Source: Escherichia phage UE-S1. From it: DNA of 64,000 bases. Under the pieces are notes generated by a model. That model was not told the DNA's origin, did no database searches, and saw nothing but the letters and a program-made list of their open reading frames with translations. Within the stretch, counting starts at the first letter, position 1. Each line of letters begins with the position of its first letter. Positions 31,492 to 31,870 of this stretch are shown here, piece after piece. Made by a program: the position numbers and the translations under genes. The DNA lies in sequence record ON568341.1. One strand, written 5' to 3'.

Positions 31492-31520
31492 TTGACTAAA
31501 TAGTTCAGTACTGATATAAT
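31492..31520 (+). promoter_or_regulatory. sigma70-like promoter (TTGACT-N17-TATAAT) with CAGTACTG spacer
   Basis: TTGACTAAATAGTTCAGTACTGATATAAT; no protein start directly downstream. Confidence 0.65.
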
Positions 31521-31870
31521 GAATTCCACAATCAGACGTATATGGTGTAAGCTACGTCGATGCTATCCAGAACAAGATCTCTGGTACTCTAGGAAGTGGT
31601 GAATGTTAACCTAGACGGGTTTGATAATTGGACGATAGGCAATTATTACTTGACTAGCAGGTTGAAACTAGAGGTGACAGTCCTTCACCAAACTGGAAAA
31701 CCGGATGGACTTTTATTTAAAAGGGTAAGGCGTGGAAATATGTTTACAGTAGTTACTTTTAGTAGCCTGTACGCCCCACGTTAAGGTAGTCGAAAGGCAA
31801 GTTAAAACGGGTAGTTATAAAGCTGAATTAACAGCGGCGTTTAACAGCGTCACAAAATATACGCATGTTG
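31521..31870 (+). ncRNA. candidate stable/structured RNA (unclassified)
   Basis: About 350 bp downstream of a strong promoter, inside the tRNA island, relatively GC-rich, no convincing ORF. Confidence 0.3.

Follow-up and report, generated by a model that had tools for sequence, protein, structure and literature searches.

Two candidate non-coding RNA modules in the tRNA cluster of Escherichia phage UE-S1 and the predicted fold of module A

To our knowledge, the small stable RNAs of phage tRNA clusters, such as rnaC and rnaD of T4 and the RNAs of T5, have been known for fifty years, and their role was never found. The T4 region that encodes rnaC and rnaD is dispensable, and neither RNA has a known function. 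GOLLD and ROOL, large structured RNAs with many pseudoknots and likewise of unknown function, are associated with phages or prophages and with tRNA genes, mainly in other bacterial hosts. In the T4 reference record, rnaC and rnaD are annotated next to tRNA-Arg, and the T5 record (NC_005859) lists eight stable RNAs among the tRNAs: RNAI, RNAIII, RNAIV, RNA1, RNA2, RNA2H, RNA3, and RNAX. Here, we study a segment of about 350 bp in the tRNA island of Escherichia phage UE-S1, which an earlier note had singled out as a candidate stable RNA. The segment belongs to a stretch of 64,000 nt from sequence record ON568341.1. This stretch is called the window, and coordinates refer to it unless another genome is named. 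We describe the segment as two modules, A and B, the first of which is very probably a selected RNA structure.

Distribution of the two modules

The flagged segment sits inside the tRNA island of an Asteriusvirus, i.e., a jumbo phage of E. coli similar to 121Q and PBECO4. In a megablast search, the closest relatives of positions 31000-32200 were the Asteriusvirus jumbo coliphages 121Q, PBECO4, slurp01, SP27, and others, with 93-98% identity. A sensitive blastn search with positions 31521-31870 splits the segment into module A (query 2-188) and module B (query 198-333). As far as sequences can tell, these are two independent, horizontally exchanged modules of the phage tRNA cluster and not one RNA. 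The earlier proposal thus holds for a promoter-driven non-coding gene in the tRNA island, but its single RNA of 350 nt has to be replaced by two modules. The idea of a stable-RNA gene gains support from the conservation across unrelated phage groups, the position on the tRNA strand within the clusters, and the abundance of compensatory changes.

Module A occurs alone, with 85-92% identity, in the Bragavirus phages PM2 and Pm5461 (Proteus) and SdyM_006 (Shigella), in Morganella phage Mm5, in the Novosibvirus Proteus phages 1 and 2, and in EJP2. Bragavirus is T4-like, Novosibvirus is T5-like, EJP2 belongs to Asteriusvirus, and Mm5 is recorded only as Straboviridae. Module B was found alone in JNE01. 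Both modules are present in RaK2 and K64-1 (Alcyoneusvirus) with about 80% identity and an extra promoter between them. Shorter matching pieces come from Aeromonas phage 65 and its relatives, Klebsiella phage KP13-16, and Kuravirus phages. Apart from occasional hypothetical proteins, nothing is annotated beneath these blastn matches.

When blastn and covariance model searches are combined, the carriers of module A comprise Asteriusvirus, Alcyoneusvirus, Bragavirus, Novosibvirus, KP13-16 (Stephanstirmvirinae), Ishigurovirus, and three lineages of metagenomic or viral contigs. Across six lineages, module A recurs with 72-92% identity or is recognisable only at the model level. Between unrelated phage families module A retains 85-92% identity, unlike the flanks, which share nothing; this argues for horizontal transfer of the module.

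In every carrier, module A has the same orientation as the tRNAs, and in most lineages it exactly occupies the interval from one tRNA to the next. Its start lies 0-3 nt behind the encoded CCA and its end 6-16 nt ahead of the following tRNA, as seen in PM2, SdyM_006, Proteus phage 1, EJP2, the contigs L113 and L109, and others. The neighbours vary: tRNA-Gly and tRNA-Asp in PM2 and SdyM_006, tRNA-Leu and tRNA-Ser in Proteus phage 1, tRNA-Pro and tRNA-Thr in avDM6, a promoter and tRNA-Ser in EJP2, and a preceding tRNA-Leu in KP13-16.

To metagenomes we applied a scan with the pattern of the invariant core, filtered by a hidden Markov model and two covariance models (R1 and R2). It yielded L033, L034, L058, L109, and L113 as well as the near-identical copies L027 and L064. 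On viral contigs, the core pattern in a strict and a relaxed version added one new lineage, L020. Three divergent lineages were gained in this way, all beside tRNAs on the same strand, namely L109, L113/L058 (L113 from a 349-kb contig), and L020. The borderline model matches L055, L086, and L101 were discarded, as they are of low complexity or rich in G+C, no tRNAs lie close to them, and the pseudoknot PK2 described below is missing. Blastn with divergent members of module A revealed no further groups of isolate phages. In bacterial genomes, the core pattern gave 40 matches, none of them real, and almost all matches to the relaxed pattern were due to chance. Moreover, 5,426 E. coli genomes and 72,556 plasmids contained no match to either module. 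On these grounds, module A appears to be confined to virulent phages with tRNA clusters.

Within Asteriusvirus, module A is dispensable, since it is cleanly deleted in G17, phAPEC6, and Sharanji. In these phages the promoter and the first 37 nt run directly into the ribosome-binding site of a gp130-like gene, whereas about 300 nt intervene in 121Q and its relatives. The 37-nt remnant (positions 2947-2984 of the G17 locus, L004) corresponds to the 5' strand of the pseudoknot PK1 and most of hairpin Pa, placed as the leader of the gp130-like gene, and looks like a deletion scar.

Predicted fold of module A

Seven helices were derived from the close group and cast into model R1, and 18 homologues were then aligned. 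In the predicted fold (Table 1), a 5' domain of Pa, Pb, and Pc is closed by the pseudoknot PK1, and a 3' domain combines Pd and Pe with an H-type pseudoknot (Pf and PK2) and Pg around an invariant core made up of CGGG, GACGAUA, UUGACU-GCAG-N4-AAAC-AGAGG, and GAUGG.

Table 1. Predicted features of the segment and its immediate surroundings in the window
Feature	Position	Strand	Remarks
Promoter, sigma-70 type, extended -10	31492..31520	+	TTGACT 31492-31497, 17-nt spacer, TATAAT 31515-31520, TG 31512-31513
Module A, structured RNA of ~190 nt	31521..31710	+	seven helices Pa-Pg, two pseudoknots; 239 bits (R1), 219 bits (R2)
PK1, 5' strand CCAC	31526..31529	+	pairs with GUGG 31596-31599 in the Pc loop
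Helix Pa	31531..31561	+	31531-31540 with 31553-31561, one bulged A; 12-nt loop UAUGGUGUAAGC
Helix Pb, CCAGA/UCUGG	31567..31584	+	variable hairpin
Helix Pc, UCUAGG/CCUAGA	31588..31615	+	loop holds the PK1 3' strand 31596-31599
Helix Pd, UGAUAAUUG/CAAUUAUUA	31622..31648	+	conserved loop GGACGAUAGG
Invariant core	31649..31672	+	junction CUUGA, helix Pe CUAG/CUAG, loop CAG-N4-AAA
H-type pseudoknot domain, Pf GGUGA/UCACC	31673..31710	+	31673-31677 with 31685-31689
Helix Pg, CUGG/CCGG	31693-31696 with 31701-31704	+	
PK2, GUCC/GGAC	31680-31683 with 31707-31710	+	Pf loop to 3' end
Module B, 3' end lost in the window	31722..31853	+	long hairpin, GNRA hairpin, three-way junction
B long hairpin	B1 31729-31735 with 31776-31782; B2 31745-31749 with 31767-31771; B3 31752-31756 with 31762-31766	+	
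B GNRA hairpin, GUC-GAAA-GGC	31789-31798	+	
B three-way junction	B5 5' strand 31809-31815; B6 31822-31835; B7 31836-31851	+	
Downstream ORF, 89 aa	31872..32141	+	likely start ATG 31887; ribosome-binding site GAGG 31876-31879

Covariation was counted for 32 pairs in the reliably aligned 3' two-thirds, i.e., in Pc, Pd, Pe, Pf, Pg, and PK2. Standard pairs fill 97.5% of the cells compared with 83.2% in shuffles, and none of 500 shuffles reached the observed value. Changes on both sides were seen in 21 of the 32 pairs, against 9.9 in shuffles and 3-4 when the partners were slid by 1-3 columns. All six pairs of Pc are compensated, with 100% of cells paired, as are all seven core pairs of Pd and three of the five pairs of Pf. 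PK2, which lies outside the covariance model, is also paired in 100% of the cells, with compensatory changes in three of four pairs. After curation, a script found the strands of all helices in the right order and without mismatches in 14 sequences. Judged against these controls, base pairs are maintained by compensatory changes, and the secondary structure conserved in homologous regions, for which the earlier note had proposed to look, is present.

Individual elements vary in sequence or form. The bulge of Pa is gone in Mm5, leaving a perfect helix of 9 bp, and KP13-16 has a different helix of 10 bp at this place. Pb reads CCG/CGG in SdyM_006 and Proteus phage 1 and CCCACA/UGUGGG in KP13-16, and it is absent from L113 and L058. 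In Pe, an A-U pair is replaced by G-C in four sequences. PK1 is predicted at a constant position in five sequence types (CCAC/GUGG, CCUCA/UGAGG, AGCAC/GUGCU, CUACA/UGUAG, and CCCAC/GUGGG), and PK2 occurs as GUCC/GGAC, ACCC/GGGU, GCCC/GGGC, UAUCC/GGAUA, UCCC/GGGA, and GCCU/AGGC. Approximately 40 unpaired positions are invariant and fall into the groups CGGG, GACGA in the region of the Pd loop, UGACU-GCAG-N4-AAA-AGAGG, and GAU-G.

The conserved G-U pairs G103-U127 and U174-G183 (numbered as in the window copy) would be A-C mismatches on the opposite strand, so the + strand is the RNA strand.

Several other pairings and motifs were considered and rejected. An alternative closing helix AUUCCA/UGGAAA (31524-31528 with 31694-31698) competes with the covarying PK1 and is not kept in KP13-16 and phage 65. 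Pairing of the Pe-loop CAG with CUG at 31693-31695 shows no covariation and is broken in phage 65. The residues of a hammerhead-like GAAA, of GAGG..AGUCC resembling the CR-I region of RNase P, and of the Shine-Dalgarno-like GAGGUGA are not conserved across lineages.

These comparisons show that module A is a conserved, strand-specific, and non-coding RNA structure on which purifying and compensatory selection acts, and that unrelated phages have passed it horizontally from one tRNA cluster to another.

Module B and the surrounding tRNA island

Module B was aligned from eight sequences, which stem from Asteriusvirus, RaK2-like phages, two metagenomic sources, and one partial Kuravirus copy. Nine of 39 pairs are compensated, compared with 3.5 in shuffles and 0-4 in slid controls, and thus pairing in module B is also maintained by compensatory changes. 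As this alignment also served to derive the structure, module B is less well supported than module A. The three-way junction is closed by GGGUGGU/ACCAUCC in the alignment. A hairpin GGCGU/ACGCC was dropped in favour of the RNAalifold version GGCGUGG/CCACGUC, which with its G-C and U-G pairs explains all substitutions in L033 and in Kuravirus vB-EcoP-XT18.

The window copy has neither the closing strand CAUCC nor the U-tract, and one G of the closing helix is changed to A. Homology to all relatives stops at 31853/31854, inside module B, and the window copy is best described as truncated at its 3' end by a rearrangement. Without this end, transcripts would be expected to continue into the downstream ORF.

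Single three-way junctions, detached from the rest of the module, follow tRNAs as well and, in RaK2-like genomes, another unannotated RNA-like stretch. These lone junctions have compensated closing helices (GGAUGAU/AUUAUCC, GGAUAGU/ACUAUCC) and are always followed by one to three A and then four to seven U. We located such elements of about 50 nt, 3' of tRNAs or small RNA modules, in RaK2 (L012) at 2459-2505, 2840-2890, and 4092-4150 and in L034 at about 381, 773, and 1772. These elements coincide with a sigma-70-like TTGACA-N17-TATTAT. The distribution suggests that the junction with its U-tract has a role at transcript 3' ends. In relatives, a closing helix of 7 bp stands ahead of A1-3 and U4-7, partly in the manner of an intrinsic terminator; however, the structure is branched, an A spacer lies between, and a simple scan does not call it.

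Further unannotated stretches were noted in these genomes. A G+C-rich gap of 790 nt without annotated genes in vB-EcoP-XT18 (L009, 1013-1803), beside an endonuclease gene, holds a copy of the module B long hairpin with compensatory changes (about 1497-1568) and has no Rfam match. RaK2 is largely devoid of annotated genes at 1006-1920. Its positions 2331-2458, about 130 nt directly 3' of a tRNA, contain a closing helix of 7 bp (AACAGGU/ACCUGUU) and an apparent pseudoknot GGGUU/AACCC across a GUGUACA hairpin, a candidate small RNA.

With regard to the locus, several statements of the earlier note could be checked directly. The strong promoter TTGACT-N17-TATAAT that it placed ahead of the segment was found again with an extended -10 element, and it scores 11 of 12 in a promoter scan, which overall performs near chance (66 sites compared with 57 expected from shuffles). 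A cassette of 20 nt, TTGACTAAATAGTTCAGTAC, occurs in four + strand copies in the tRNA island (31012, 31421, 31492, 34879), where 0.02 are expected. The copy at 34879 lies directly upstream of tRNA-Ser(ACU) at 34918, and in relatives, too, the same cassette stands ahead of tRNAs. Its copies are bordered by the palindrome AGTACT, and the one at 31421 has no -10 box and supplies the ribosome-binding site of a 9-codon ORF instead. The locally higher G+C content was likewise confirmed: it amounts to 0.40-0.41 in 31500-31900 and to 0.28-0.34 in the flanking coding DNA. A tRNA-like element had been expected as the next feature; instead, an ORF with a good ribosome-binding site precedes the tRNA at 32071.

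This ORF of 89 aa overlaps the tRNA at 32071-32145 with its 3' end, stands where relatives have the gp130-like gene, and is not part of the RNA family. In the window it would share a transcript with modules A and B. On the + strand between 29577 and 36849, ARAGORN predicts eight tRNAs and Rfam seven. The tRNA at 32071-32145 has an anticodon loop of 8 nt, CUUCAUAA, for which ARAGORN gives the anticodon 'tcat' and the type '???', and an Rfam tRNA score of 51.8 bits; a tRNA for quadruplet decoding or of the frameshift-suppressor type is conceivable, as is a damaged tRNA-Met/Ile2.

The stretch from 31853/31854 to about 34900 is rearranged in a way common only to the window and phage JNE01 (92% coverage in four pieces). 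It includes an ORF of 565 aa on the minus strand (32152-33849) and an ORF of 174 aa for an HNH endonuclease (34331-34855). As in JNE01, the rearrangement brought in the short ORF, the odd tRNA, the 565-aa minus-strand gene, and the HNH endonuclease gene. Upstream of the segment, two tandem paralogous ORFs of 54 aa (30676-30840 and 30837-31001) each begin with MTHEEWM, and relatives carry two or three such genes of 165 nt in tandem.

Interpretation and comparison with known stable RNAs

We favour, with moderate confidence, the interpretation that the segment consists of two non-coding RNA genes of the tRNA cluster and that module A acts in trans. Module A would be transcribed together with the tRNAs, in the window from the tRNA-type promoter at 31492, and the tRNA-processing enzymes of the host would release it as a separate RNA some 190 nt long. 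RNase P would cut at the 5' end of the following tRNA, RNase E and 3' exonucleases would act behind the CCA of the preceding one, and the knotted ends would shield the product from exonucleases. Such a release as a stable RNA is somewhat more probable than its absence. The RNA might then bind a protein or a ligand. Its most plausible target would be a host factor of tRNA metabolism or translation, or a defence nuclease directed against tRNAs for which module A might serve as a decoy; the strict association with tRNA genes and the spread among phages of enterobacteria and Aeromonas point in this direction. Module B may be a second small RNA, whose three-way junction and U-tract most probably end or stabilise the transcript. 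The decoy function itself is a tentative proposal of low probability.

An alternative explanation that we consider rather unlikely takes both modules as cis-acting spacers or leaders which insulate tRNA folding, direct the processing of the precursor, or stabilise the 5' end of a downstream mRNA, without a function once released. Their positions fit this explanation, as the modules precede a protein gene within its 5' leader in the window, 121Q, and RaK2 and are themselves the tRNA-tRNA spacers elsewhere, and phages of the G17 type retain the first hairpin as an mRNA leader. However, ordinary spacers in the same clusters measure 2-10 nt, so an element of 190 nt is not needed for processing. 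A double pseudoknot with about 40 unpaired nucleotides kept invariant across families far exceeds the needs of an insulator, and gains and losses affect the element as a whole, whatever tRNAs or genes flank it.

Module A might also be a ribozyme, self-cleaving or RNA-processing, or an aptamer of the riboswitch kind. Its size, the pseudoknots, and the invariant junction nucleotides are typical of catalytic or ligand-binding RNAs, yet the known models of ribozymes and riboswitches give no match even at E<=10. The G of the GAAA-like stretch in the Pe loop is not conserved, which leaves no hammerhead core. For a riboswitch or a cis-acting leader, one would expect an expression platform and a constant downstream gene; module A has no such platform and is followed by different tRNAs, module B, or unrelated ORFs. 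This explanation is, in our view, unlikely.

Less probable still is an element that works at the DNA level and mimics RNA pairing, for instance a promoter or operator array, the target of a homing endonuclease, or a recombination scar. The local promoter cassettes are indeed palindromic (AGTACT...AGTACT), the 3' domain of module B overlaps a promoter-like TTGACA-N17-TATTAT, and HNH and seg endonuclease genes are found nearby. In module A, however, pseudoknots and strand-specific G-U pairs, with partners up to 70 nt apart, are not explained by duplex palindromes, and the DNA explanation retains some probability only for B6 and B7, two helices of module B.

It is very improbable that the segment holds small protein genes, be it the only two ORFs in 31521-31870, of 27 aa (31519-31602) and 62 aa (GTG start, 31596-31784), or an N-terminal extension in slurp01. 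In GenBank, 121Q gene 129 and slurp01 PSLUR01_00042, which cover parts of the segment, are annotated as hypothetical proteins. However, the 27-aa ORF starts with an ATG that overlaps the -10 box, stop codons interrupt every frame on both strands of all 18 homologues of module A, leaving none open throughout, frame-breaking indels occur between homologues, and close relatives differ by indels of 1, 5, and 6 nt. The substitutions, in turn, arrive as paired compensatory changes. A conserved reading frame is therefore missing, as would be expected for a selected non-coding RNA, and the earlier note was right in seeing no convincing ORF in these 350 bp.

A group I intron or its remnant can practically be dismissed: its likeness is superficial (a GNRA hairpin and several short helices), neither a group I model nor any other in Rfam matches at E<=10, the copies have complete tRNAs, a promoter or a stop codon as neighbours and never the halves of a split gene, phages without the element show a deletion in a leader and no rejoined 'exon', the comparative structure of seven short hairpins and two pseudoknots has no P3/P7 arrangement, module A alone is smaller than group I introns usually are, and the pair CTTGACTAGCAGG/GGTAGTCGAAAGG that had suggested an intron core joins strands of two independently occurring modules by a 5-bp match which is broken without compensation in 121Q (GGTAGCC).

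For the interpretation as two RNA genes with module A acting in trans, there are several points that weigh against it. Single-sequence folds are not unusually stable (z = -0.64 for A, -1.5 for B, and -1.5 for A+B), and the structures of minimum energy are not those found by comparison; consequently, the evidence for module A is comparative and not energetic. The alignment represents about six independent lineages, and the pair counts for nested helices come from an alignment that had been fitted to the model. The 5' third of divergent sequences was misaligned by the tools and had to be curated by hand, so PK1 rests on a hand-curated alignment, and the loop-shuffle test gave a modest result (combined p about 6e-4). 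Furthermore, the -10 box of the window ends 5 nt before the 5' strand of PK1, compared with 10-11 nt in RaK2 and L033, so a normal start (31526-31528) would clip PK1. Upstream promoters may supply the full RNA in Asteriusvirus, or its copy may work without PK1 or be in the process of being lost. The 3' domain of module B doubles as a sigma-70-like promoter (TTGACA, a 17-nt spacer, and TATTAT or CACCAT), and part of its pairing could be a DNA palindrome. No partner protein or consistent neighbour gene points to a function, and literature searches on the carrier phages yielded neither transcriptomes nor northern blots.

For the question of the stable RNAs, module A provides a better handle, as covariation defines its fold well. 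It is nearly unchanged in genetically tractable coliphage relatives that belong to three unrelated families, which argues for a portable, host-dependent benefit, and the natural deletion variants within one genus make near-isogenic comparisons possible. In addition, the analysis corrects the annotation of several hypothetical proteins in GenBank and adds a candidate family that Rfam lacks. Module A may, tentatively, represent a new class of functional RNA traded between the tRNA clusters of virulent phages, acting as a decoy or inhibitor of a tRNA-directed immune nuclease or a tRNA-processing enzyme of the host, or as a new ribozyme. If so, the puzzle of the T4 and T5 RNAs would become testable by means of one element common to phages of E. 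coli, Klebsiella, Proteus, and Aeromonas.

Neither at the gathering threshold nor at E<=10 did Rfam 15, with its models of group I introns, tmRNA, RNase P, 6S, Y-RNA-like RNAs, ribozymes, and riboswitches, give a match to positions 31520-31870, and on four other carrier loci only tRNAs were reported at E<=0.1. The covariance search suggested by the earlier note thus recovered nothing but tRNAs. In KP13-16 (L013), we observed a weak tmRNA-like match at 656-731 (31.6 bits, threshold 47) and, at about 1626-1680 after module A, a piece resembling a tRNA fragment with the T-arm sequence GAGTTCGAATCTC, which ends in ACCA. When the literature was searched both by topic and by sequence string, no account of module A came to light. 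An automated catalogue of 10,006 candidate structured viral RNAs from 2023 was compiled by screening the intergenic regions of IMG/VR for covariation (PMC10690425). As IMG/VR includes 121Q, RaK2, Pm5461, and phage 65, the family of module A or a piece of it might be among the unnamed candidates, although its text describes no such RNA in tRNA spacers.

Among the closest described systems, the RNAs of T4 share the location of module A. Like module A, rnaC (species 1, 139 nt) and rnaD (species 2, 119 nt) are encoded on the tRNA strand within the cluster, abut tRNAs, and are non-coding. However, rnaC ends in a tRNA-like T-arm, GGGTTCGAATCCC, which module A lacks, and module A is longer and has two pseudoknots. 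T4 was absent from the blastn matches, and R1 and R2 found nothing in its tRNA region. The earlier analogy with the small RNAs of T4 can therefore be kept for the location but not as homology of sequence or model. The T5 RNAs resemble module A in lying among tRNAs, in their unknown function and, in some cases, in following promoters directly. RNA2H has 172 nt and is placed after promoter P13b and before tRNA-Ala, in a family that also includes carriers of module A (Novosibvirus). It has none of the invariant motifs of module A, and a covariance search of the T5 tRNA region with filters switched off gave 11.2 bits at best, inside RNAX and a promoter, and nothing at RNA2H. GOLLD and ROOL are three to four times larger than module A, and their Rfam models do not match here. 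By analogy with these systems, we regard module A as an RNA family that is absent from Rfam 15 and yet of a known kind, the stable RNAs of phage tRNA clusters, among which it would stand out by its more elaborate fold.

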